Assembly: GCA_963719225.1 (NCBI GenBank)
Contig: CAVRAY010000001.1
Location: 2,144,001-2,208,000 of the forward strand
From: Thermoanaerobaculia bacterium
GTDB lineage: Bacteria > Acidobacteriota > Thermoanaerobaculia > UBA5066
Direction: 5' to 3'
DNA length: 64,000 bases
Shown: in pieces, positions 49,719-64,000 of the stretch
How positions within the stretch are numbered: position 1 is the first letter of the stretch
How the letters are laid out: every line of letters starts with the position of its first letter
The notes under the pieces: generated by a model
The model's input: only the letters and a program-made list of their open reading frames with translations
Database searches by the model: none
Told to the model about the DNA's origin: nothing
Position numbers and translations under genes: made by a program

Positions 49719-50932
49719 ATGAAATCGAACCGACCCTCCCGCTTGCTCCTCGTCCTCGCCGGCGCGCTCCTGGCGGCCCTTCCCGCCCCCGCCCAGGACG
49801 TCATCAAGATCGGAGCCGTGCTGCCCGTCACGGGCAAGGAATCCAAGATCGGGGGCGCCTTCAAGGCGGCCACGGAATACGCCGTCAAGGAAGTGAACGA
49901 CGCCGGCGGGCTCGACGTGGGCGGCAAGAAGATGAAGGTCGAACTCTCCCTTCTCGACGACACCTCGGACGGCGCCCGCAGCGCGCAGCTCGTCGAGCAG
50001 CTCATGGCCCAGCAGAAGGTCCACGCCGTCATCGGCGGCTACGGCTCCCAGCTCGTGCAGGCGCAGAGCGTCGTTCCCGACCGCTACGGGATTCCGTACG
50101 TCTCCGGCGGAGCGGGCGCGACGAGCATCTACGGGCGCAGCAAGTGGGTCTTCGGAGTGCTTTCGCCCGTCGAGAACCTCGCGTCGACGCAGATGGATTT
50201 CCTCTCGGATCTCGTCGCCCAGGGGAAGCTGAAAAAGCCGCTGACGATCGCCCTCCTGATGGAGAACACCGAGCACGGAAAGGACTTCCAGAAGGGAGTC
50301 AAGGACTACGCGAAGGCGCATGCCCCGAGTTCTCCGTCGTCCTCGACGAGAGCTTCGAGCTTTACGCGCCCGACTTCAAGCCGCTCCTGGGCCGCGTCGC
50401 GGCGGCGAAGGCCGACCTCTTCATGTGCGACGCGCACCTCGAGGACTACATCTCGATGCAGCGCGCATACACGCAGATGGGCCTGTATCACCAGATGGTC
50501 ACTTACGGAGCTCGCGGCGCGGACGAGGCGGGACGAAAGGGCCTTGGAGCCGCGACGGACTACATCTTTGCGAGCGGCTGGTGGTCCGACCTCCTGCCCT
50601 ATCCGCAGGTAAAGGCTTTCACGGCGAAGTGGAAAGCGGCTGCCGGATCCGCGCCGCAGTGGTACCACGCGACGGCTTACGAGGCCGTGCGCGCGCTCTT
50701 CTCGGCGATCCACAAGGCCGGATCGCTGAAGCCCGAGCCCATCCGCGCGGCGCTCGCCGGAATCGAGCTGAAAGACTCGATCCTGCCGGGCGGCGTCCTG
50801 AAGTTCACGAAGACGGGCCAGGCCGTCCTCCCCTTCGTCGTGACGCAGAACAAGCCGAACGGCAAGGTCGATCTCGTGTGGCCGAAGGAGGCGCGTACGG
50901 GGGAACCCGTCGCCCCGATGCCGAAGCCGTGA
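49719..50932 (+). CDS. Third branched-chain-type ABC substrate-binding protein, frameshift near 50325
   Basis: Signal peptide, IKIGAVLPVTG, ENTEHG; continues in ORF ending PMPKP. Confidence 0.8.
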
Positions 50933-51402
50933 GGAACGGGACCCGCGTCGTCGCTCCGCTCGCCCCCGTCTTCGAGAGCGTCGTCGGGTCGACGATGAGG
51001 CCCGGCGATCGCGGCACCGCGAAGCTCGTCCGCGACTGGGGCGACCGGCTCGTCACCATCCGCTACCGCTACAGCAATTCGCCGCCAACGCGGTTCACGA
51101 CAGTCGAGCTCGTCGTCGCGTCGGCGCCATGGGCCCCTAAGGCTTCACGGAGCGTCCTCGTCGAGGTCCGGTCGTGGGAGGGAGAGCTCAGGGAGAAGAT
51201 TCGAGCCGCCGGCGGGCGGTTCGTTCTGAAGGCCATGCGCTGGCGAATCCGCTACGACAAGGCGATCGCCCTCGGCCTGAAGGATCGTGTTTCGTTCCTG
51301 GTCCCGCATGCCCCGCCAACCCCGAGAACCTCTACACCCGTAGGGACGCGAAAATCACTACCTGCACAGACATCCGGTCGGTTCAAGGGCAAAAGCACCT
51401 AG
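50929..51402 (+). CDS. Small basic hypothetical protein at the head of the cassette array
   Basis: GTG overlaps the SBP stop (alternative ATG 50995). Core MRPGDRGTAKLVRDWGDRLVTIRYRY...TTVELVV...ELREKIRAAGGRF...WRIRYDKAIALGLKDR; no tyrosine-recombinase motifs. Confidence 0.7.
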   Translation: MRNGTRVVAPLAPVFESVVGSTMRPGDRGTAKLVRDWGDRLVTIRYRYSNSPPTRFTTVELVVASAPWAPKASRSVLVEVRSWEGELREKIRAAGGRFVLKAMRWRIRYDKAIALGLKDRVSFLVPHAPPTPRTSTPVGTRKSLPAQTSGRFKGKST

Positions 51403-52731
51403 CAGGCTGCTGAAGAAAGGGCTCTTTTTCAAAGGAGCTTGAGCGGGAGAAGACACGTCAAGCTGAAAGAGGGGATTGCTTCGAGAGAGTGAGTCCGTGC
51501 TGCTCGCCTTTTTCGGCCCGCTTCGGTCGCACCGAGGGGCGCTTCAGGGGGAATCAGGCGGTCGAGGACTCCATTCGCGCCATTCGGACGAGGTTGTAGG
51601 CCGTCATCACGCTGAGGACGTGAGCCGCCACGCGGGCGAGTCCTCGGAAGCGCGTCTTGGCCAGGCCTCCGATGGTCTTACTCCAGCCGAAGATTTCTTC
51701 GACGCGCTTCCTGATTCGCTGGCTCACGGCGTAGCCCGCGTGTCTCGTCGTCCTTCGGTCGATGGCGCTGCGCCTGTTGGTGGTGTTCTGGGCCACGTGG
51801 GGCGTGACGCCTCTCTCTCGGAGCCTTTCGATGAAATCCCTCGTGTCGTAGCCCTTGTCGCCGGCCAGCGTGATGCGCTTGTCCGAGCCCAGCTCGTCGA
51901 CCATGCCCAGTGCGGCCGACCTCTCCCCGTAGCCGTCGGCCGTCGTTACGCGCGCCTTCACGCACAGTCCGTTTCTGTTCTCCATCAAGACGTGGCCGAG
52001 GTAGCACAGCTGCGAAGGCTGGCCGTCTCCCTTCTTGTAGAGCTTGGCGTCGGGATCGGTCGTCGAGGCGTGCGTGTCGTTGCGCCTCTTCTGGCCGCGA
52101 AAGTCGACATCGGCGTTGCGGCCGCCAGGAGCTGGCGGCTCATCGCCGCCCTTACCGTCCTTGTCCTTCCGGGGCTGGAAGCTCTTCAAGGAGGCGTTCG
52201 CTTCGATCAGCGTGCCGTCCACGGTGAAGTGCTCGTCCGAGAGAAGAAACTTCTTGCGGGCCTGTGCGACGACTTCCGAGAAGAACTCCCCGAAGACCTC
52301 GGCCTCCAACAGTCTCTGGCGGTTCTTCGAGAAGGTCGTCGGATCGAAGGCCGGTGCAAGCCCCGGCATGTCCAGGAACCAGCGGAAGAGAAAGTCGTAC
52401 CCGAGCCGCTCGCAGAAGAGCCGCTCGCTTCTCACGCTGTACAGCGCGATGAGGATCTGCGCCTTGAGAAGCATCTCGGGCGGAATCGATGGACGCCCTC
52501 GCTCCGAGTACAGCCTGGCGAGCTTGGGCTCGAGACGCCTGAGCGCTTCGTCTGCAAGCGCCTTCACCTTGCGGATCGGGTGGTCCCGCGGCACGAGCTC
52601 CTCGGGCGTCATCGTCACGACAAGATCGACCTGCTTTTCGTTGTCTCCACGCATGCACACCAAGGTGCAGCCGCATCGCGCAGCAGTCAATGCCTCGCCG
52701 CGATTTTCAGGAGCCCTTTTTCAGCAGCCTG
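51403..52731 (-). mobile_element. IS5-family insertion sequence
   Basis: Terminal IRs CAGGCTGCTGAA(G)AAAGGGCTC; CTAG duplicated at 51399-51402 and 52732-52735. Confidence 0.92.
51554..52654 (-). CDS. IS5-family DDE transposase
   Basis: GRPSIPPE, YSVRSER, VDGTLIEA, GDKGYD, RKRVEEIFGWSK, AYNLVR. Confidence 0.92.
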   Translation of the reverse strand: MRGDNEKQVDLVVTMTPEELVPRDHPIRKVKALADEALRRLEPKLARLYSERGRPSIPPEMLLKAQILIALYSVRSERLFCERLGYDFLFRWFLDMPGLAPAFDPTTFSKNRQRLLEAEVFGEFFSEVVAQARKKFLLSDEHFTVDGTLIEANASLKSFQPRKDKDGKGGDEPPAPGGRNADVDFRGQKRRNDTHASTTDPDAKLYKKGDGQPSQLCYLGHVLMENRNGLCVKARVTTADGYGERSAALGMVDELGSDKRITLAGDKGYDTRDFIERLRERGVTPHVAQNTTNRRSAIDRRTTRHAGYAVSQRIRKRVEEIFGWSKTIGGLAKTRFRGLARVAAHVLSVMTAYNLVRMARMESSTA

Positions 52732-52755
52732 CTAGATGCAGATACCGCTCTTGCC

Positions 52756-52777
52756 GTCTAATACTAGTTAGGCGGCC
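52756..52777 (+). other. attI-like array head recombination site
   Basis: GTCTAAT-ACTA-GTTAGGC with no preceding attC body; GTTAGGCGGCC is the exact reverse complement of the far end of cassette 1 (GGCCGCCTAAC, 53216-53226). Confidence 0.7.
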
Positions 52778-52787
52778 ATCAAGCGCA

Positions 52788-53225
52788 ATGCGTCGCTTCC
52801 GCGTCCTCCTCGCATTCATCCTGCCAGCTCTGCTGCTGCTCGAATACCTCTGCTTCTCCAACGTCTCGCTCTTTGACGATAGCGGGCGCGACGGCCTGCG
52901 CTTTGGCACGAGTTACTCATTCCTGCCTGTCGGGGACCGCGCATCGCACGTGCTCTACTGGTGCCAGCCCGTTCTAACATTTCCCGTCCGTCCGGTACTT
53001 CAACTCTCGGGTCGCGGTCTACCCGTGCCCTCTGCATTCCCACCCACCGGTATTCGAGGCGTCGCGTTTCGCGTCGCCTATCCCTTCTTCCGCAACCCGC
53101 TAACCGAACGTGCGGTGCGCTTGAACCTCGCGTGGCTCGCGGTTCTAAATCTCACCCTCCAGGCGAGCATCCTTTTTCTCCTCGTGCGGCTACGTTCGGC
53201 TCTCCGGCCGGCCGAGGCCGCCTAA
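52788..53225 (+). CDS. Cassette 1: hypothetical membrane protein
   Basis: Hydrophobic N and C termini; TAA stop inside R''. Confidence 0.7.
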   Translation: MRRFRVLLAFILPALLLLEYLCFSNVSLFDDSGRDGLRFGTSYSFLPVGDRASHVLYWCQPVLTFPVRPVLQLSGRGLPVPSAFPPTGIRGVAFRVAYPFFRNPLTERAVRLNLAWLAVLNLTLQASILFLLVRLRSALRPAEAA

Positions 53226-53279
53226 CAACGCGCTGCAGCGGACTCGCTACGCTCGCCGCTGAGCTTGATATCGTTAGGC
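53220..53279 (+). repeat. attC site 1
   Basis: R'' GCCTAAC, L'' GCTGCAGC / L' GCTGAGC (one extrahelical base), R' GTTAGGC; 60 bp. Confidence 0.93.
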
Positions 53280-53317
53280 CGCATTCACGGGTTTCCGGAG
53301 ACACTGGAGGCCACATC

Positions 53318-53794
53318 ATGCTCGGCGCATTACTCCCGCGGCGTATGGACAATGAGTATCGCGGCCACACGTTGGCGCTCTGGCTCTTTGGCCTGGTAAT
53401 CGCAATGAAGAGCACCCAGAGCCTAGCCATCATTTTCAACGGGTACCCGACGGCAAGAGATGCCGACGGGATTCCACTCGATTCATTCACACCGGCGGTC
53501 GCGCAAACGGTGGTCGCGGTTTTTGCTCAAGGATCGCTTTGGCGCCTATTCTTCTGTCTCCTGTGCGTGCTCGTGCTCTTTCGATATCGAAGCGCGGTCC
53601 CCTTGATGTTCGGGCTCCTCGCGTTGAACTACCTGGCCGCACAGCTGATCCTGATCTTCGTTCCACTACCTCGCGTGGGGGCGCCGGTCGGGCCGCTGGT
53701 GAACCTAGGCTTGTTCGTCGTCATGCTCGTTGGCCTAGGGCTTTCGCTGTGGCGCCGCGGTGGCTCCGTCGCGAACGAGTCACGCGCGGCCTAA
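53318..53794 (+). CDS. Cassette 2: hypothetical membrane protein (DADGIPLDSF motif)
   Basis: GGAGG RBS, about 4 TM segments, stop in R''. Confidence 0.8.
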   Translation: MLGALLPRRMDNEYRGHTLALWLFGLVIAMKSTQSLAIIFNGYPTARDADGIPLDSFTPAVAQTVVAVFAQGSLWRLFFCLLCVLVLFRYRSAVPLMFGLLALNYLAAQLILIFVPLPRVGAPVGPLVNLGLFVVMLVGLGLSLWRRGGSVANESRAA

Positions 53795-53848
53795 CAACGC
53801 GCTGCAGCGGACTCGCTACGCTCGCCGCTGAGCTTGATATCGTTAGGC
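53789..53848 (+). repeat. attC site 2
   Basis: Same 60-bp sequence as attC1. Confidence 0.93.
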
Positions 53849-53852
53849 GCCG

Positions 53853-54337
53853 ATGAGTCGACCTTTAGGAGGTTCCGTGCTGCCTCGAAGCCCGTTTCCC
53901 GCCGGACTAGCAGTTTTTAGCGGCGGCATCGCCGGGCTGCTGGGGTCCTTCATTGTATTCTTCGTTCTAGGCACCTCTAGCATCTTTGTTACTGCATCAT
54001 CCACCCGCAACCCAGCATTCCCCTGGGTGTTCTGATTGCATTCAGCGAGGCAGTTATGGGCGCAGTGGCCTACGGCTGGCTATCGCTGCCTCTCGGTATC
54101 CTTTCAGCCTTCGCAATCGCGGCCACAACGCGCACCTTCCCGTCGTCCGCGCCACTCGTAGTCGGCGGTGTTTCGGCTCTACTGGTTGGCGTCATGGCCT
54201 ACTTCGCGGTTGCACTCGTGCCGAGTCGCTGGGAGCTCTCGCCTGTTTACATCAGCGCGGTCACCGCCGGCTTCACCTGGCTCGGAGGTGTCTTCTTCGC
54301 GCGCCGCACCCGTTTAGCTACACCAGACGGCGCCTAA
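53853..54337 (+). CDS. Cassette 3: membrane protein split by a frameshift
   Basis: Hydrophobic ORFs 53853-54035 and 54056-54337 fill the cassette; stop in R''. Confidence 0.55.
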
Positions 54338-54391
54338 CAACGCGCTGCAGCGGACTCGCTTCGCTCGCCGCTGAGCTTGATATCGTTGGGC
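54332..54391 (+). repeat. attC site 3
   Basis: GCCTAAC...GTTGGGC. Confidence 0.92.
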
Positions 54392-54426
54392 GGCGAAGGG
54401 CTAAACTGAGCATGAAGGAGCGGCAC

Positions 54427-54810
54427 ATGCGAATTTCTAAGCTGGCGCTCGTACTTCTATTCGCCGCAACTCCCCTAGCCGCCGACACACCCTGCGCGCG
54501 AACCATTGGTGGCCGGCACATTCCTGCATTTGTCGGCGTCGGCTCGGAGGGCCTCGATTTTCAGAAGCGCTGCCTCGTCTGGGAATACTCCGCTGAGCCC
54601 AAGGCTGAATTCATCCCTGCTCCGGAGGCACCGTCCTTTTCCCCAGCCTCACAGGTCGTCGTAATCCAGCCGGCTCCCAACCGCCAATCGGGCTCACTGG
54701 CCCTCTCGGATCTCCTCTCGCGGAGTCTCAGCATTAAGCCAGGTATTTCCGAATCCGCGCTCACCTCCGTGTCAGAGGGTTCGGATCCCCAGCTTCCTGC
54801 GGTTAAGTAG
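54427..54810 (+). CDS. Cassette 4: exported hypothetical protein
   Basis: AAGGAG RBS; signal peptide MRISKLALVLLFAATPLAA. Confidence 0.7.
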   Translation: MRISKLALVLLFAATPLAADTPCARTIGGRHIPAFVGVGSEGLDFQKRCLVWEYSAEPKAEFIPAPEAPSFSPASQVVVIQPAPNRQSGSLALSDLLSRSLSIKPGISESALTSVSEGSDPQLPAVK

Positions 54811-54959
54811 CGGGTTCCGGCGCCGCCCAACACCTCATATCTGGACTCCTCCTTGGGATCAAGTGCGGGCGGTCTGTGGTTTTTCTCCTTCTAAGAAATC
54901 AGGCGATCCTGGGTCGTCGGGGCGATTCCTGCGTGGGAACGCGATCGATGGTGATGAGC

Positions 54960-55110
54960 GGAGAAGGTCGCGACGGCACTCGTATCTACGGCCTCTTCTG
55001 TTGGAGCCTTCGTGGGCTCCGGGCCAGGATGAAATCCGCACACGGGGGGCCAATCGTTGTGCAACGGCTTCTTGGAGCCAGAGGTGTTATCGGCTTTGCC
55101 CCGTGTCGGT
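54960..55110 (-). ncRNA. Predicted bridge/seek RNA of the IS1111-type element (same in copies 2 and 3)
   Basis: Two stem-internal-loop-stem modules; loop strands match the attC target (AACACCUC, CCGUUGCA) and the IS ends (UUCAUCC, AGAUA). Boundaries approximate. Confidence 0.72.
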
Positions 55111-55187
55111 CGGACCGAGCTCATCTGTCGCATCTTTCGCGTTCGTCGGCGGGAAGGGCTGACGGGTTTCTCTCCCACTTTCTCGTT

Positions 55188-56243
55188 TCAGGCAGAAGCG
55201 GTTGCTGGAGGGTTCTGAGCGGCGAACCTGGCCTTGAACGGCTCGCCCCGCGTCGCGACGGCCCAGATGATCCGGGCGAGCTTGTTTGCGACGGCGACTG
55301 CGGCGCGGTTTCGCCCGCGCCTGTTCTCGACCTCGAGCGCCCATCGCTGCAGGTCATGCGGCCTTTTCCTGCGATGGGCCGAGAGCAGCATCGAGCGGGC
55401 CCCGCCGATCAAAAGCGTCCTGAGGTACGGGTCTCCGGCCTTGCTGATCGACCCGAGCCACCTTCTCTTTCCGCTCGAGCTTTCCTTCGGCGTCAGCCCG
55501 AGCGAGCTCGCAAACTTCCGTCCCGACTTGAAGCGCAGGAAGTCTCCGACCATCGCAGAAAACGCCGTGGCGTTCAGGAGACCTACACCCGGAATCGTCT
55601 CGAGCCTCTCGACGAGAGGAGCCGTCCGGGCCAGGGCCTTCAGCTGCTTTTCGACCTGCCCGCTTCTTTCCTCGAGCTCTCGGGCCTCGGCCATCATCGC
55701 CATGAGCGCCGCGTGAAGGGGTTCGGGCACGGGCGAGGAAGACTGCGAGAGGGCTTCGAAAAGCGCCGGCTGGACTCTCTCGGCTCCCTCGGCAATCACA
55801 ACCCCGAATTCCCTCAGCAGACCTCTCACGGTGTTCAGCCGGGCGGTCCGGGTCTTCATCAGCGCCGCGCGCACCCGGTGAAGCGCGCAGATGGTCTGCT
55901 GCTCGACCGTCTTGACGGGCACGGCGACGATCGTTTCTCGGTGCCGCGCGCTCAGGATCGCTTCGGCGTCCCTGCGGTCGATCTTCTGGCCGATGCGGTA
56001 CGGCCTGACGTGCTGCGCCGGAAGCAGCCGCACGTCGTGCCCGAGCTCCTGCGCCTTGCGGCCCCAGTAGTGCGAGGTGCCACACGTCTCCATGAGGATC
56101 GTGGCCCTGGGGCACTGCGAAAGAAACGTGATCATCTGCCCTCGGCTCAGCCGCTTCCTCTGGCAGATGCGCCCCCCGCGCTCGACGGCAATCTCGAAGA
56201 CGCTCTTGGACAGGTCGATCGCGATCGTCGTAGGATTCTCCAT
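55188..56243 (-). CDS. IS110-family (DEDD RuvC + Tnp20) recombinase, copy 1
   Basis: IAIDLSK, METCG, KIDRRDA, IPGVG, GLTP..SSSGK, ANKLAR. Confidence 0.95.
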   Translation of the reverse strand: MENPTTIAIDLSKSVFEIAVERGGRICQRKRLSRGQMITFLSQCPRATILMETCGTSHYWGRKAQELGHDVRLLPAQHVRPYRIGQKIDRRDAEAILSARHRETIVAVPVKTVEQQTICALHRVRAALMKTRTARLNTVRGLLREFGVVIAEGAERVQPALFEALSQSSSPVPEPLHAALMAMMAEARELEERSGQVEKQLKALARTAPLVERLETIPGVGLLNATAFSAMVGDFLRFKSGRKFASSLGLTPKESSSGKRRWLGSISKAGDPYLRTLLIGGARSMLLSAHRRKRPHDLQRWALEVENRRGRNRAAVAVANKLARIIWAVATRGEPFKARFAAQNPPATASA

Positions 56244-56407
56244 GGACTCCTCCTTTTCGGCTTCACTCTCCGACTCGATGACGTTGGCACACAGATGCCG
56301 TTTTCACGTCATGAAGGAGGAGTCCACTTCATCCCTGCAGCGGACTCGTCGTCAGTCGCTGCGCTCCTTCCTCCTCGCCGCTGAGCTTGATATCGTTAGG
56401 CCGCTCA

Positions 56408-56791
56408 ATGGTGCAAGTGGAACAAGCGGCATGGCCTCGCGAGCGCCGAATCAGGTTTGCCAGAGTAACGGCCCTTCTCGCCGGTGCCGCATCCGTCATT
56501 CCCTCCTGCTGGATGCTTTCTCTCGGGCCCTTCAAACCCTCGGAGTGGAACCTCGTCCACCTCGTGGTACTGCTCCTGCCGTGGCCCGGCCTCGTCGGCG
56601 CGTTTATCTTGCGGCGGCGACCTGACGAGGCCATCGCGCTTTTCCTGTTCAGCGCGGCCGGTTGCGGTTACATGTCCGTGTTTCTTTTCCCCTTGCCCTT
56701 CTGGGTCCCAGCCGCCCTGTTCTGGTTCGTTGCCGTGGGCTTCGCGTGGGGCCCGGCGCCCACGGCACAACTTCCCGCGCCCCACAGCTAG
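56408..56791 (+). CDS. Cassette 5: hypothetical membrane protein
   Basis: About 4 hydrophobic segments; starts 7 nt after R'. Confidence 0.65.
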   Translation: MVQVEQAAWPRERRIRFARVTALLAGAASVIPSCWMLSLGPFKPSEWNLVHLVVLLLPWPGLVGAFILRRRPDEAIALFLFSAAGCGYMSVFLFPLPFWVPAALFWFVAVGFAWGPAPTAQLPAPHS

Positions 56792-56823
56792 CCTGCCAGG
56801 CCACAAGGAGCGGCCTAACAACG

Positions 56824-58320
56824 TATCTGGACTCCTCCTTGGGATCAAGTGCGGGCGGTCTGTGGTTTTTCTCCTTCTAAGAAATCAGGCGATCCTGGGT
56901 CGTCGGGGCGATTCCTGCGTGGGAACGCGATCGATGGTGATGAGCGGAGAAGGTCGCGACGGCACTCGTATCTACGGCCTCTTCTGTTGGAGCCTTCGTG
57001 GGCTCCGGGCCAGGATGAAATCCGCACACGGGGAGCCAATCGTTGTGCAACGGCTTCTTGGAGCCAGAGGTGTTATCGGCTTTGCCCCGTGTCGGTCGGA
57101 CCGAGCTCATCTGTCGCATCTTTCGCGTTCGTCGGCGGGAAGGGCTGACGGGTTTCTCTCCCACTTTCTCGTTTCAGGCAGAAGCGGTTGCTGGAGGGTT
57201 CTGAGCGGCGAACCTGGCCTTGAACGGCTCGCCCCGCGTTGCGACGGCCCAGATGATCCGGGCGAGCTTGTTTGCGACGGCGACTGCGGCGCGGTTTCGC
57301 CCGCGCCTGTTCTCGACCTCGAGCGCCCATTGCTGCAGGTCATGCGGCCTTTTCCTGCGATGGGCCGAGAGCAGCATCGAGCGGGCCCCGCCGATCAAAA
57401 GCGTCCTGAGGTACGGGTCTCCGGCCTTGCTGATCGACCCGAGCCACCTTCTCTTTCCGCTCGAGCTTTCCTTCGGCGTCAGCCCGAGCGAGCTCGCAAA
57501 CTTCCGTCCCGACTTGAAGCGCAGGAAGTCTCCGACCATCGCAGAAAACGCCGTGGCGTTCAGGAGACCTACACCCGGAATCGTCTCGAGCCTCTCGACG
57601 AGAGGAGCCGTCCGGGCCAGGGCCTTCAGCTGCTTTTCGACCTGCCCGCTTCTTTCCTCGAGCTCTCGGGCCTCGGCCATCATCGCCATGAGCGCCGCGT
57701 GAAGGGGTTCGGGCACGGGCGAGGAAGACTGCGAGAGGGCTTCGAAAAGCGCCGGCTGGACTCTCTCGGCTCCCTCGGCAATCACAACCCCGAATTCCCT
57801 CAGCAGACCTCTCACGGTGTTCAGCCGGGCGGTCCGGGTCTTCATCAGCGCCGCGCGCACCCGGTGAAGCGCGCAGATGGTCTGCTGCTCGACCGTCTTG
57901 ACGGGCACGGCGACGATCGTTTCTCGGTGCCGCGCGCTCAGGATCGCTTCGGCGTCCCTGCGGTCGATCTTCTGGCCGATGCGGTACGGCCTGACGTGCT
58001 GCGCCGGAAGCAGCCGCACGTCGTGCCCGAGCTCCTGCGCCTTGCGGCCCCAGTAGTGCGAGGTGCCACACGTCTCCATGAGGATCGTGGCCCTGGGGCA
58101 CTGTGAAAGAAACGTGATCATCTGCCCTCGGCTCAGCCGCTTCCTCTGGCAGATGCGCCCCCCGCGCTCGACGGCAATCTCGAAGACGCTCTTGGACAGG
58201 TCGATCGCGATCGTCGTAGGATTCTCCATGGACTCCTCCTTTTCGGCTTCACTCTCCGACTCGATGACGTTGGCACACAGATGCCGTTTTCACGTCATGA
58301 AGGAGGAGTCCACTTCATCC
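56824..58320 (-). mobile_element. IS1111-type element, copy 2
   Basis: Same ends and length as copy 1, with a few substitutions. Confidence 0.92.
57174..58229 (-). CDS. IS110-family recombinase, copy 2
   Basis: Differs from copy 1 at LQQW vs LQRW. Confidence 0.95.
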   Translation of the reverse strand: MENPTTIAIDLSKSVFEIAVERGGRICQRKRLSRGQMITFLSQCPRATILMETCGTSHYWGRKAQELGHDVRLLPAQHVRPYRIGQKIDRRDAEAILSARHRETIVAVPVKTVEQQTICALHRVRAALMKTRTARLNTVRGLLREFGVVIAEGAERVQPALFEALSQSSSPVPEPLHAALMAMMAEARELEERSGQVEKQLKALARTAPLVERLETIPGVGLLNATAFSAMVGDFLRFKSGRKFASSLGLTPKESSSGKRRWLGSISKAGDPYLRTLLIGGARSMLLSAHRRKRPHDLQQWALEVENRRGRNRAAVAVANKLARIIWAVATRGEPFKARFAAQNPPATASA

Positions 58321-58373
58321 CTGCAGCGGACTCGCTACGCTCGCCGCTGAGCTTGATATCGTTAGACGGCCAA

Positions 58374-58865
58374 ATGTGCAGAAACCCCAGCAGACTCGTC
58401 GTAGTAGCGGTGTTTCTTCTTCTCGTGCGCCATGTCCATGGCCAGAAGGCTAACGCCCGGCTGGACGGCCGCGTGACCGCGGCGGACGGCGCATCCCTGC
58501 CAGGTGTCGCAATCCGGCTCGAGTCATCAACTATTTCGGGCATGCCGGTTCACGTCACGAACGCGTATGGCGAGTACTACGTGGTGTTTCTGGCTCCCGG
58601 TACGTATTCAGTCACGGCCGAACTAAGCGGCTTCGTCCCTCAAACCCAGTCGGCCACCCTGTCGGCCCAGCGGCCAGCGGTTATCGCTAACTTCAAGCTC
58701 GCCCTCCAGCAACCGCAGACGCCTATTCGGGTCGCCTTTGTCGACCCCAGCTTCTCGGTCGGCGCTACCACCGCTCCGTCGGGTCTGCCTTTCCTACCCC
58801 CGGCCATTCCATCACTTCCAATCACTCGCTCTTACGGCCCCACCTTTGTGGGGCGGGGTCCCTGA
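58374..58865 (+). CDS. Cassette 6: exported carboxypeptidase-regulatory-like domain protein
   Basis: Signal peptide; GRVTAADGASLPGV...TNAYGEY...LAPGTYSVTAELSGF. Confidence 0.75.
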   Translation: MCRNPSRLVVVAVFLLLVRHVHGQKANARLDGRVTAADGASLPGVAIRLESSTISGMPVHVTNAYGEYYVVFLAPGTYSVTAELSGFVPQTQSATLSAQRPAVIANFKLALQQPQTPIRVAFVDPSFSVGATTAPSGLPFLPPAIPSLPITRSYGPTFVGRGP

Positions 58866-58884
58866 GTGGTTCGGCCGCGTGGCC

Positions 58885-58944
58885 GTCTAACAACGCGCTC
58901 CAGCGGACTCGCTGCGCTCGCCGCTGAGCTTGATATCGTTAGCC
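58885..58944 (+). repeat. attC site 6
   Basis: GTCTAAC...GTTAGCC. Confidence 0.92.
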
Positions 58945-58960
58945 GCCGTATAATCACGAC

Positions 58961-59182
58961 ATGTCGACGCCCGTACTCGACGACGCTCTTCGCCTCCCGG
59001 TTACGGAGCGAATCGAGCTCGTTCAGGCCATCTGGGACAGCATCGTGGCGGAATCCGCTTCGGTGCTGGTCACGGACGAGCAGCGTGCCGAAATCGACCG
59101 GCGGCTCTCGGACGCGGCGTCGAACCCTAAAGACGAACGGCCGTGGTCCGAGGTTCGCTCGTCCTTAGAACGTAGCCGGTGA
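58961..59182 (+). CDS. Cassette 7: putative addiction-module antitoxin (TIGR02574-like)
   Basis: LPVTERIELVQAIWDSI...EIDRRL...PWSEV. Confidence 0.85.
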   Translation: MSTPVLDDALRLPVTERIELVQAIWDSIVAESASVLVTDEQRAEIDRRLSDAASNPKDERPWSEVRSSLERSR

Positions 59183-59481
59183 GCCTGCCGGTCGTTTTTC
59201 GCGGCCTCGCGGATCGCGAGGTTCACGCAATCCAGGCCTGGTACGAGGCACGGCAAGCCGGCCTCGGGGGCCGGTTTAGGGCTTCACTCGATCTTGTCGT
59301 GCAACTCATCTCTGAGCATCCTCTCGCCTGCCCTCTGGCTCACCGCGACGCCCGGCGCGCGCTCGTCCCTGGCTTTCCGTACGCGCTGTTCTACGTCGTG
59401 CTTCCTGACCGCATTCGGGTTCTGGCCTGCCTGCATCAGCATCGCGGGCCAGCGGCCGTCCGGGAAGCGCTCACCCGTTAG
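59179..59481 (+). CDS. Cassette 7: ParE/RelE-family toxin
   Basis: GTGA overlap with the antitoxin; WYEARQAGLG.RF, RRALVPGFPY, VLACLH..R.P. Confidence 0.85.
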   Translation: MSLPVVFRGLADREVHAIQAWYEARQAGLGGRFRASLDLVVQLISEHPLACPLAHRDARRALVPGFPYALFYVVLPDRIRVLACLHQHRGPAAVREALTR

Positions 59482-59485
59482 CGGC

Positions 59486-59545
59486 GGCTAACAACGCGCT
59501 GCAGCGGACTCGCTTCGCTCGCCGCTGAGCTTGATATCGTTAGGC
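59486..59545 (+). repeat. attC site 7
   Basis: GGCTAAC...GTTAGGC. Confidence 0.92.
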
Positions 59546-59564
59546 AGCAGAAAGCGCTGCCACG

Positions 59565-59798
59565 TTGGATTTCGAGCTTCTCTCTCCGATCACCGGCATC
59601 GAGACCATCGCGCGCGGCGCGGCCATTCGCGAAGTGGCGAGGCTACGTCGAGCGTACGGTTCAGGGCGCTGGCTTAAGCGGAAGGGCTTCGCTTTCGTCC
59701 GCGCCGCCGATGGTCTAACCTATCGTGCGGAGATTCACTGGTATGAAGCGAGCGGCATCGGGCGCAAGGAACTCAAGGTCAAGCGGTACTTCCCGTAG
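59565..59798 (+). CDS. Cassette 8, gene A: small basic hypothetical protein
   Basis: IETIA..IRE..RLRRAYG.GRW.K.KG...AEIHWYEA.GIG.KE.K.K. Confidence 0.75.
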   Translation: MDFELLSPITGIETIARGAAIREVARLRRAYGSGRWLKRKGFAFVRAADGLTYRAEIHWYEASGIGRKELKVKRYFP

Positions 59799-59802
59799 CG
59801 CG

Positions 59803-60033
59803 GTGCCAGCGCGTCGGTGGGTCATCTGCGTCAACTCGGCGGGCTACGCGGCCTCGCTCGAGGTCGGTAAGGTCTATCGCACGCTCGGTGCGCCGGCACA
59901 CGGGCCCGCGGACCACCTGCGCGTTGTCGACGAGTCGGGCGAGGACTACGTCTATCCGAAGAACCTCTTTAGGGCCATCACTCTTCCTGCCCAGGTTCAG
60001 CGCGCACTCGGTCACGCGGTCCCTGCTGCCTAA
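59803..60033 (+). CDS. Cassette 8, gene B: small hypothetical protein
   Basis: ICV...Y.ASLE.GKVY...LRVVDESGEDYVYP; stop in R''. Confidence 0.75.
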   Translation: MPARRWVICVNSAGYAASLEVGKVYRTLGAPAHGPADHLRVVDESGEDYVYPKNLFRAITLPAQVQRALGHAVPAA

Positions 60034-60087
60034 CAACGCGCTGCAGCGGACTCGCTGCGCTCGCCGCTGAGCTTGATATCGTTAGCT
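60028..60087 (+). repeat. attC site 8
   Basis: GCCTAAC...GTTAGCT. Confidence 0.92.
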
Positions 60088-60144
60088 GGCTAAGACTCAC
60101 GGTCGCGAGTAGACTGCATTCGACACTCCAGTCTGGAGGACACT

Positions 60145-60525
60145 ATGCGACACATACGTTCCAGTGTCGTCATCGCATCCGTCACGGCTCTTCTCGCCGC
60201 TTGCGGATCCTCTCCAACCGAACCTACCAACACTCAGGGCCTGCGCACGACCGTCAAGATCACAGTCACGACGTGCGAACTCGGCGGAAGCGTGGTGGTT
60301 CTCTCTGACGGCGGCGGTGCTCCCGTTACCCTATTAACACCAGGAGAGGCCACGCTCAGCCTCACTCCGGGCCCGCATTCCCTGTCATACCAGCGTGGCA
60401 ACCAGGTGTTTGGGGGCGACGTGCTTCTCATCGGTGGTAACACTCTTGGCACGCTTCCGCCCGGCACCACCGCGTCAATCGCAATCCTTAATCCACCCGG
60501 CGCCTGCATGGCAGCACCACAGTAA
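60145..60525 (+). CDS. Cassette 9: lipoprotein
   Basis: GGAGG RBS; lipobox LAAC followed by GSSPTEP. Confidence 0.8.
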   Translation: MRHIRSSVVIASVTALLAACGSSPTEPTNTQGLRTTVKITVTTCELGGSVVVLSDGGGAPVTLLTPGEATLSLTPGPHSLSYQRGNQVFGGDVLLIGGNTLGTLPPGTTASIAILNPPGACMAAPQ

Positions 60526-60574
60526 GAGCATTCTTCCTGCAAAGGGCCTCTTCGGGCGCACGCTCCTGCGCGCC

Positions 60575-60634
60575 AGCTAACAACGCGCTGCAGCGGACTC
60601 GCTGCGCTCGCCGCTGAGCTTGATATCGTTAGGC
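60575..60634 (+). repeat. attC site 9
   Basis: AGCTAAC...GTTAGGC. Confidence 0.92.
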
Positions 60635-60648
60635 GCCGAAGCAGAGTC

Positions 60649-60949
60649 ATGTCACTAGAACGCACCGTCTTCGCTCCAGTAGAGCGCCTCGCAGACGCGC
60701 TCTACCCTTATCGTTGGCGCTTCGTCCTCTCCACGCTGCTCCTGTCTGCCTTTCCTCTCGTGCTCGCCTTCGCCGGGCGGCGCCTTTGGCCCGAGGAGGC
60801 GGTCCGAGTCGTCTTGTATGTGGCTCCCGTTGTAATGACCCTGGTCGTCTGGGTCTGGAGCGCAAACCTCATCGCGGTATGGTTCGGCCCAGCCCGGCTC
60901 AGGCCCCGTCGCATGCCACACACCCTTAAACGCGCCCGCGAGGCTCTTT
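60649..60949 (+). pseudogene. Cassette 10: membrane protein interrupted by IS3
   Basis: Two TM segments; the frame runs into the IS3 left end; only ~26 bp of cassette remain after the IS. Confidence 0.65.
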
Positions 60950-60999
60950 TGAATCGCCCCGGCTTTTCCGGAGGCTCCAACACTTGAGAGGATGGAGCC

Positions 61000-62231
<1,232 letters not shown>

Positions 62232-62300
62232 ACCAGTCTCCGGAGAACCCGGGGTGATTCATTGCCTTTTCGCCACTGCATTAGGGCGCCTAACACCTCA

Positions 62301-63797
62301 TATCTGGACTCCTCCTTGGGATCAAGTGCGGGCGGTCTGTGGTTTTTCTCCTTCTAAGAAATCAGGCGATCCTGGGTCGTCGGGGCGATTCCTGCGTGGG
62401 AACGCGATCGATGGTGATGAGCGGAGAAGGTCGCGACGGCACTCGTATCTACGGCCTCTTCTGTTGGAGCCTTCGTGGGCTCCGGGCCAGGATGAAATCC
62501 GCACACGGGGAGCCAATCGTTGTGCAACGGCTTCTTGGAGCCAGAGGTGTTATCGGCTTTGCCCCGTGTCGGTCGGACCGAGCTCATCTGTCGCATCTTT
62601 CGCGTTCGTCGGCGGGAAGGGCTGACGGGTTTCTCTCCCACTTTCTCGTTTCAGGCAGAAGCGGTTGCTGGAGGGTTCTGAGCGGCGAACCTGGCCTTGA
62701 ACGGCTCGCCCCGCGTTGCGACGGCCCAGATGATCCGGGCGAGCTTGTTTGCGACGGCGACTGCGGCGCGGTTTCGCCCGCGCCTGTTCTCGACCTCGAG
62801 CGCCCATTGCTGCAGGTCATGCGGCCTTTTCCTGCGATGGGCCGAGAGCAGCATCGAGCGGGCCCCGCCGATCAAAAGCGTCCTGAGGTACGGGTCTCCG
62901 GCCTTGCTGATCGACCCGAGCCACCTTCTCTTTCCGCTCGAGCTTTCCTTCGGCGTCAGCCCGAGCGAGCTCGCAAACTTCCGTCCCGACTTGAAGCGCA
63001 GGAAGTCTCCGACCATCGCAGAAAACGCCGTGGCGTTCAGGAGACCTACACCCGGAATCGTCTCGAGCCTCTCGACGAGAGGAGCCGTCCGGGCCAGGGC
63101 CTTCAGCTGCTTTTCGACCTGCCCGCTTCTTTCCTCGAGCTCTCGGGCCTCGGCCATCATCGCCATGAGCGCCGCGTGAAGGGGTTCGGGCACGGGCGAG
63201 GAAGACTGCGAGAGGGCTTCGAAAAGCGCCGGCTGGACTCTCTCGGCTCCCTCGGCAATCACAACCCCGAATTCCCTCAGCAGACCTCTCACGGTGTTCA
63301 GCCGGGCGGTCCGGGTCTTCATCAGCGCCGCGCGCACCCGGTGAAGCGCGCAGATGGTCTGCTGCTCGACCGTCTTGACGGGCACGGCGACGATCGTTTC
63401 TCGGTGCCGCGCGCTCAGGATCGCTTCGGCGTCCCTGCGGTCGATCTTCTGGCCGATGCGGTACGGCCTGACGTGCTGCGCCGGAAGCAGCCGCACGTCG
63501 TGCCCGAGCTCCTGCGCCTTGCGGCCCCAGTAGTGCGAGGTGCCACACGTCTCCATGAGGATCGTGGCCCTGGGGCACTGTGAAAGAAACGTGATCATCT
63601 GCCCTCGGCTCAGCCGCTTCCTCTGGCAGATGCGCCCCCCGCGCTCGACGGCAATCTCGAAGACGCTCTTGGACAGGTCGATCGCGATCGTCGTAGGATT
63701 CTCCATGGACTCCTCCTTTTCGGCTTCACTCTCCGACTCGATGACGTTGGCACACAGATGCCGTTTTCACGTCATGAAGGAGGAGTCCACTTCATCC
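62301..63797 (-). mobile_element. IS1111-type element, copy 3
   Basis: Same ends, 1497 bp, appears identical to copy 2. Confidence 0.92.
62651..63706 (-). CDS. IS110-family recombinase, copy 3
   Basis: Same protein as copy 2. Confidence 0.95.
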   Translation of the reverse strand: MENPTTIAIDLSKSVFEIAVERGGRICQRKRLSRGQMITFLSQCPRATILMETCGTSHYWGRKAQELGHDVRLLPAQHVRPYRIGQKIDRRDAEAILSARHRETIVAVPVKTVEQQTICALHRVRAALMKTRTARLNTVRGLLREFGVVIAEGAERVQPALFEALSQSSSPVPEPLHAALMAMMAEARELEERSGQVEKQLKALARTAPLVERLETIPGVGLLNATAFSAMVGDFLRFKSGRKFASSLGLTPKESSSGKRRWLGSISKAGDPYLRTLLIGGARSMLLSAHRRKRPHDLQQWALEVENRRGRNRAAVAVANKLARIIWAVATRGEPFKARFAAQNPPATASA

Positions 63798-63861
63798 TTG
63801 CAGCGGACTCGCTTGCGCTCGCCGCTGAACTCGATATCGTTAGACCGCACAGGGGACGAGC

Positions 63862-64000
63862 GTGAAGCGTGCCGACCCGAGCAAACGGATCAATCGCCTC
63901 CTCCGGGAGCTCGCGGGTCGCGCTCATGCGGAGGCGCTCGGCCGAGAACTTTTGGAGCTTCACGAGGACTTCCATGCTTGGCAGAAGGGCAACCTCTCGG
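63862..64000 (+). CDS. Cassette 11: hypothetical protein, cut by window end
   Basis: GTG after an AGGGG RBS; open frame VKRADPSKRINRLLRELAG... to the window edge. Confidence 0.55.
   Translation, partial: MKRADPSKRINRLLRELAGRAHAEALGRELLELHEDFHAWQKGNLS

Follow-up and report, generated by a model that had tools for sequence, protein, structure and literature searches.

How can an array of integron cassettes start at an attI-like recombination site when no integrase gene lies beside it? The question is raised by a 64,000-nucleotide stretch of the genome of a Thermoanaerobaculia bacterium (assembly GCA_963719225.1, contig CAVRAY010000001.1, positions 2,144,001 to 2,208,000; hereafter the window, in whose numbering positions without a prefix are given). 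Here the cassettes are preceded by a small basic open reading frame (ORF), which the initial annotation took to head the array instead of an integron integrase. The reading that we favour is that the window contains a satellite integron capture site, composed of this companion gene, phased palindromes, an attI site and cassettes, within the operon of an ATP-binding cassette (ABC) transporter, and that this site is likely loaded in trans by the single integrase of the genome. It is a variant of the integron platform that is real and, in the literature searched, undescribed.

In agreement with the initial annotation, neither a tyrosine-recombinase gene nor a remnant of one was found in the window (best tblastn E 0.27). 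A search of the whole genome for intI, which that annotation had proposed, revealed an integrase that could act in trans: the sole IntI above the TIGR02249 cut-off is encoded at C1:1115046-1115984, 1.08 Mb from the window. Its gene is co-oriented with its own array, the attC sites of which are 92-100% identical to those of the window over the aligned cores, and a paralogue of the companion gene (39% identity, E 5e-18) is located between this intI and its attI. Exact matches to the attI core occur at three platforms only in the entire genome. The third platform (C1:290811-290925; L011:5811-5925), directly 3' of a DUF4920 gene, carries attI, three strong palindromes and at least two cassettes, and has neither intI nor the companion gene. 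All three arrays have the attC type in common, as well as IS110-family elements inserted in attC. Platforms without one or both genes fit an action in trans of the companion protein as well as of IntI, and both would operate in this way. At the intI locus, an ORF with a YdeI/OmdA domain (L009:14547-15041) lies between intI and the companion gene; in most relatives those two adjoin.

A word-indexed search yielded 56 homologues of the companion protein, all without names, and one conserved peptide pattern gave 134 confirmed loci in GTDB genomes. The counts given here for the family refer to the best 80 of these 134 loci, eight of which duplicate loci from the genus of the window, and kin among them are not independent. 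The 80 loci are from Acidobacteriota, Chloroflexota, Proteobacteria, Rhodothermota, KSB1, Rokubacteria and others, and the closest named records are from Thermoanaerobaculia. An intI gene was present directly upstream of the companion gene in 35 of the 80 loci (21 tandem, 14 divergent; 29 full length, six truncated) and downstream of it in none. In the genus of the window (24 genomes), all 16 intI genes above the cut-off have the companion gene. The usual place of the family is thus between intI and attI of complete integrons, and the protein therefore accompanies IntI and does not replace it, which corrects the initial view of a gene standing in for the integrase.

Using a covariance model trained on 28 attC sites (E <= 0.01), we obtained 64 attC matches, all on the expected strand and 63 of them downstream of the companion gene. 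Among matches outside the training sites, 38 of 39 were downstream, though the searched DNA amounted to 193 kb downstream versus 412 kb upstream. attC was present in 29 of the 46 loci with at least 500 bp of downstream sequence (13 of 30 without the training loci); contigs ended within 500 bp downstream in 34 of the 80 loci and upstream in one. Neither intI nor a covariance-model match was present in ten loci with 1.5 kb of downstream sequence. Three of these have attC-like repeats, three an attI-like core recognized by eye, and four (L033, L088, L089, L091) are unexplained. Homologues lie mostly at arrays; the initial annotation had counted the opposite distribution against its proposal.

The association was also approached from the side of the integrase. 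The companion gene was adjacent in 10 of 90 loci picked by intI (6/47 in Acidobacteriota, 4/14 in Chloroflexota, 0/29 in Gammaproteobacteria), a set that includes some short contigs and one locus duplicating L065, and from which one locus of an unpublished genome was omitted. In the sister family, an intI match was found in 16 of 16 genomes and the companion gene in none of them (including the unpublished G025 and G030). Among 201 Acidobacteriota genomes taken in a single draw, intI was present in 11 of 12 genomes with the gene versus 49 of 189 without it (Fisher p 8e-6, overstated by kinship; the 49 include the unpublished G088 and G190). IntIs linked to the gene are scattered on an IntI tree of 148 rows, with 14 changes, six of which are forced by strong branches. 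Phages gave no match to the companion family and plasmids one partial match. The companion gene is optional for integrons, and it is near certain that its family is associated with them. Of the initial proposal of a dedicated array-head factor, the part that holds is that this is a platform gene and not a chance neighbour; the DNA binding that it considered as one option for the protein is a proposal, to which we return below.

The ten intI-less copies of the genus that the tree includes form one clade (SH-aLRT, a Shimodaira-Hasegawa-like approximate likelihood ratio test, 99; quick tree). We compared, across 21 genomes of the genus, what follows the ABC binding-protein gene, the host gene after which the platform is inserted: five had an empty operon with the permease gene directly next, seven the companion gene and attI directly, one a gene fragment with attC, one a paralogue hybrid and seven other inserts. 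Within up to 1.5 kb, intI followed this host gene in none of the 21. The far end of the array, beyond the window, reaches permease genes that belong to the same ABC system and not intI, and the whole element is therefore an insertion inside the operon. An intI at either position would have spoken for the simple deletion that the initial annotation had considered. The intI-less copies are under purifying selection: the ratio of nonsynonymous to synonymous substitution rates (dN/dS) was 0.24 for the core (median of 44 non-independent pairs) and 0.63 for the tail. At the attI-like GTTAGGC (52767), where the array had been annotated to start, the sequence before GTT is kept in relatives and the next 300 bases gave no cross-matches among the ten orthologous sites, indicating variable first cassettes; in this respect the site behaves as attI.

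Three further observations concern these platforms. One hybrid head (L281; G015:C278) combines the 5' end of a window-type gene with the 3' half, the palindromes and the attI of the intI-linked type, which suggests recombination between platforms. Gene-less attI platforms with other upstream repeats lie 3' of the same host gene in three genus genomes (L246, L249, L271). A possible signature of an IntI secondary site was seen at the left border of satellite platforms.

The head of the array in the window comprises the following features; matches of palindromes 1 and 2 are from a scan with a position weight matrix.

49719-50932, plus strand: gene for a branched-chain amino-acid ABC binding protein (Pfam Peripla_BP_6 on both frameshift pieces, 49719-50320 and 50144-50932).
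50929-51402, plus strand: head (companion) gene, 157 amino acids, isoelectric point (pI) 11.6, with a folded core and a disordered tail that overlaps the palindromes.
51330-51347, no strand: palindrome 1, a weak match (6.1 bits) inside the tail of the gene; orthologues have it at the same position, 94-95 bp away from the crossover.
51354-51371, no strand: palindrome 2, a weak match (5.9 bits), at the 70-71 bp position in orthologues.
51395-51402, no strand: left part of palindrome 3, which takes in, at its end, the left IS5 duplication and the stop codon of the gene; intact in the site of the closest relative (L101/L256, 18.1 bits).
51403-52731, minus strand: IS5-family insertion sequence within palindrome 3, with its transposase at 51554-52690 (Pfam DUF772 and DDE_Tnp_1).
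52732-52745, no strand: right part of palindrome 3 with the right target duplication, about 30 bp from the crossover.
52754-52773, plus strand: attI core, with the crossover at the G of GTT (52767); in relatives the sequence is conserved up to GTT and varies beyond it, and the intI locus of the genome has a near-identical core.

The head ORF is real and co-oriented with the cassettes, and its stop falls about 30 bp before attI once the IS5 is removed, as had been reconstructed. It can start with GTG at 50929 (157 amino acids) or with ATG at 50995 (135 amino acids), and the GTG overlaps the stop of the upstream binding-protein gene, which itself has a frameshift near 50320, either a mutation or a sequencing error. 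The IS5 is flanked by the target duplication CTAG (51399-51402 and 52732-52735), the left copy of which contains the stop codon of the head ORF; 31 bases separate the right copy from the G of GTTAGGC. The genome has nine near-identical copies of this IS5, every one at CTAG, and the insertion has probably impaired the platform copy in the window. As to the cassette promoter (Pc), a weak scan of 50700-52900 detected no promoter of the sigma-70 type, and the cassettes may be transcribed by read-through from the ABC operon. The attI core has six bases between TAA and TTA, and spacings of both six and seven occur among related loci; the corresponding spacing is six bases in dif sites and seven in attI1.

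The palindrome is 18 bp long (N4-CTA-N4-TAG-N4), with a CTA-N4-TAG core and lineage-specific flanks, and is located between the gene and attI. Palindrome spacings of 24 and 40-41 bp are common to all three platforms of the genome. In 35 loci with attI placed by eye, two to six palindromes were present in 33; the nearest palindrome centre lay 28-33 bp from the crossover in 17 of 34 and 41-42 bp in 8 of 34, and the commonest step was 20 bp (27/89). As these are mostly training loci, the palindrome counts are not a test. The 10.5-bp phase of the palindromes to the crossover was reached by none of 5000 random shifts. In the 4.75-Mb genome, the matrix, for which 66 loci from outside the genus had served as the training set, gave 78 single matches but only three clusters: one at each of two platforms (the intI-bearing one and the third) and one in a patch of low complexity. 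Free motif discovery returned alternating TA only, and a test of the sites with a loose regular expression was uninformative.

Three genomes (G240, G122, G095) have a gene-headed attI with palindromes together with an intI-proximal attI that has neither gene nor palindromes. In G122 the same short first cassette follows both attI types; the shared cassette lies at contig ends, so that an assembly effect is possible. Fifteen loci from 14 genomes of the sister family encode closely related IntIs (57-70% identity) and have similar attI cores, with neither gene nor palindrome cluster; there, and at the intI locus of G009, core-like repeats (GCCTA in the sister family) take the place of the cluster. 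One clade of the gene (L114, L119, L120, L251) has another repeat variant upstream of attI, unscored by the matrix, and it is possible that protein and site co-vary in this clade. The palindrome core, common across phyla, differs from CTGT-N8-ACAG, the LexA box given for Gammaproteobacteria in the available text of PMC8946536, which may not be the box of the host.

For the protein, AlphaFold2 (86 sequences; predicted local distance difference test, pLDDT, 94.7) predicted two beta-alpha-beta-beta domains with a linker, forming a 110-residue core; the tail is disordered. Invariant or near-invariant residues of the core include R31, R33, R41, T44, E46, W91 and R106, and the pI exceeds 9 in 75 of 80 family cores. 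In its C-terminal half the protein is DUF5710-like (PF18974): 17 of 86 members match at E <= 0.05 (best E 5.6e-7), with a fold match over 44 columns at a root-mean-square deviation of 2.0. The window protein itself had no match in Pfam, NCBIfam, PHROGs or PDB sequences. In the ESM Atlas, unnamed clusters were found at 0.93-0.95 and DUF5710 only at 0.80; Foldseek gave no match at E <= 0.001 against PDB and BFVD, and VIA-align, with a shorter model, generic matches only (best Z 4.2). An internal repeat between the two domains is not supported (profile comparison probability 3%), and a HARP-like reading, which was based on a single weak BFVD row (probability 0.30), was dropped.

On balance, we lean towards a reading in which the satellite site is loaded in trans and the small basic protein binds the palindromes as a dimer and serves as an architectural helper of attI recombination. 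The bound dimers would occupy one side of the helix at 30-95 bp from the crossover and would bend or hold the DNA in such a way that IntI integrates attC cassettes, the same job as that of DR1 and DR2, which are direct repeats in attI1. The place of the gene, the phasing of the sites, the basic charge of the protein and the selection on it are observations, from which binding, dimer formation and an effect on recombination are inferred. For the binding mechanism of the companion protein taken by itself, we put the chances at about even or a little better. We advance more tentatively, as a possibility that is open to considerable doubt, that the protein is a fourth, self-encoded component of the integron that marks attI by phased operators, through which one integrase could run scattered sites, and that it helps to seed new sites in host operons. 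If this were true, a distributed integron would have many 'orphan' cassette arrays as its live satellites.

A number of results weigh against the helper reading. The two distal palindromes of the window score only about 6 bits. In a blind test on intI-picked loci, at least two sites were found in 1 of 10 gene-bearing versus 0 of 74 gene-less loci (p 0.12), a rank test gave p 0.09, and four of the ten gene-bearing loci were without an array. Palindromes also occur at attI sites without the gene in cis (the third platform of the genome, L241, L249, L263), and G009 has an attI with palindromes (L267), yet no copy of the gene was found in its 99% complete assembly. Because the gene and the palindromes adjoin, their co-occurrence can be linkage. 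The four unexplained loci mentioned above and L313 contain homologues without visible integron context, and in two Chloroflexota loci (L200, L202) the gene is tail to tail with intI and no palindromes follow it. A strict trans model is at odds with four genus genomes (81-98% complete) that have an intI-less platform and no intI match, and the three arrays of the window's genome have no cassette gene in common.

The palindromes might instead be the operators of a transcription regulator that acts on the cassette promoter or blocks read-through and has no role in recombination. Palindrome arrays with lineage-specific flanks do resemble operators, they are located where Pc would be, and satellite platforms directly follow co-oriented host genes. 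The sites, however, are phased to the crossover and stand at the 3' end of the gene and not at its promoter, and the weak scan saw no sigma-70-type promoter nearby; we consider this explanation, the main rival, unlikely. Another candidate for binding the palindromes is IntI itself, which would use them as equivalents of DR1/DR2 and leave the companion protein a different job, such as binding folded attC or junctions through its DUF5710-like domain, to which the DUF5710 match lends some support. According to the available text of PMC8946536 and PMC3146285, attI1 has direct repeats bound by IntI. The genus attI core includes the same CTA-N4-TAG word, and palindromes persist where a platform has no gene in cis, as well as in G009. 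This is countered by the sister-family loci, where closely related IntIs with similar cores have neither gene nor palindrome cluster, and by the three genomes in which a single IntI serves attI sites of both kinds, those with palindromes and those that lack them, and we regard such a role of IntI as quite improbable.

It is very improbable that the window holds an ordinary CALIN (a cluster of attC sites without an integron-integrase), left behind by intI loss, with the gene as a linked passenger that has no role at attI. At the site itself, intI is absent in all 21 genus genomes and five of them have the empty operon, the intI-less copies are one clade under purifying selection with changing first cassettes, and the place of the gene against attI, kept in both orientations of intI across phyla, is not expected of a passenger. 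These points are set against the decay of intI beside the gene, as evident from the six truncated among 35 gene-adjacent copies, against the loss of intI as an origin proposed for CALINs (PMC4889954, available text), and against the 80 of 90 intI-picked loci, that is, most integrons, that are without the gene. An ancient deletion of intI at the window site is possible. Even less probability, indeed hardly any, attaches to the idea that the ORF works by translation alone, bringing ribosomes to the first cassette in the way that ORF-11 of attI1 does. The start of the ORF overlaps the stop of the gene before it, its own stop lies 31 bp before the crossover, and ORF-11, ORF-17 and ORF-18 act in this manner (PMC8876359, available text). 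ORF-11, however, is an 11-codon peptide whose residues matter little, whereas the family has a folded core of 110 residues with invariant positions and a dN/dS of 0.24, and in many members the stop is 100-150 bp before attI.

Downstream of attI, the window contains the following.

52788-53279, plus strand: first cassette, with an ORF at 52788-53225 (no Pfam match) and attC at 53220-53279.
53280-64000, plus strand: remaining cassette array, with attC at 53789, 54332, 56322, 58308, 58885, 59486, 60028, 60575 and 63785.
54831-56330, 56824-58316 and 62294-63793: IS110-family copies in attC, with further copies at L009:11439-12934 and L010:2330-3166.

The ten attC sites of the window (53220-63845) are on the same strand as the head ORF, and the array extends about 2.6 kb beyond the end of the window. 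The attC type of this genome (e.g. 53220-53279) has an 8-base spacer before the final GTT, compared with 5-7 bases in most attC elsewhere, and Rfam gave no match to an attC family. All five listed copies of IS110 sit within attC, just past the first core box, in two arrays. A cassette is interrupted by an IS3-type element (61000-62231) with an apical loop-internal loop (ALIL) frameshift pseudoknot at 61278-61394, and in another cassette (58961-59481) a putative addiction-module antitoxin (PF09720) is encoded together with a partner ORF downstream of it. The array fits the definition of a CALIN given in PMC4889954 (two or more attC sites, no nearby intI); of the parts of a complete integron, it has the simple site of attI and attC-bounded cassettes on one strand and is without an adjacent intI.

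Integrons are described as consisting of an integrase, attI and a promoter, helped by host proteins. A platform-encoded protein with its own array of sites at attI would add a part to this scheme. The full-text literature searched, mostly open access and supplements aside, held no description of a conserved gene or a palindrome array between intI and attI; supplementary cassette tables might include the gene as a first cassette. In the available texts, attI is unidentified for most integrons (PMC4889954), environmental attI sites are mostly without direct repeats (PMC3146285), and host factors, DR1/DR2 and regulation by LexA are treated (PMC8946536). The companion gene can serve as a marker for attI sites, which IntegronFinder and other current tools do not search for; annotation misses it because any gene lying in the interval from intI to the first attC is taken for a cassette. 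With it, one can also test whether cassette clusters that have no integrase are relics or depend on one acting in trans.

Compared with known integron platforms, including co-oriented 'inverted' integrons, the system agrees in its IntI above the TIGR02249 cut-off in the genome, its attI core and its attC cassettes, and the complete integron of the genome is co-oriented as well; it differs in the conserved gene and palindrome array between intI and attI, in a window without intI and in three attI platforms per intI. With CALINs it shares at least 10 attC sites without nearby intI; its replicon encodes intI at another place, which according to PMC4889954 is the case for about half of CALINs. In contrast to them, the array has kept its attI together with a head module that is inherited at an orthologous position in different species while the first cassettes change. 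DR1/DR2 of attI1 are likewise accessory repeats, located upstream of the simple site and favouring the integration of cassettes, although, according to PMC8946536 and PMC3146285, they are core-like 7-bp direct repeats bound by IntI1, as opposed to two to six palindromes of 18 bp tied to a separate gene. The leader peptides ORF-11, ORF-17 and ORF-18 are, like the companion gene, coding sequences ending near the crossover, but as far as the source text extends they are 11-18 non-functional residues, versus a selected 110-residue core. The DUF5710 part (PF18974) is fused here to a more conserved N-terminal domain without a family match. Accessory factors are known from systems of other tyrosine recombinases, with ArgR and PepA used at cer and IHF and Xis at lambda att. 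The proposed mode of action, in which small proteins would occupy phased sites beside a crossover core, is the same; no sequence or fold match to any of these proteins was found, and in the present system the factor is encoded inside the platform.

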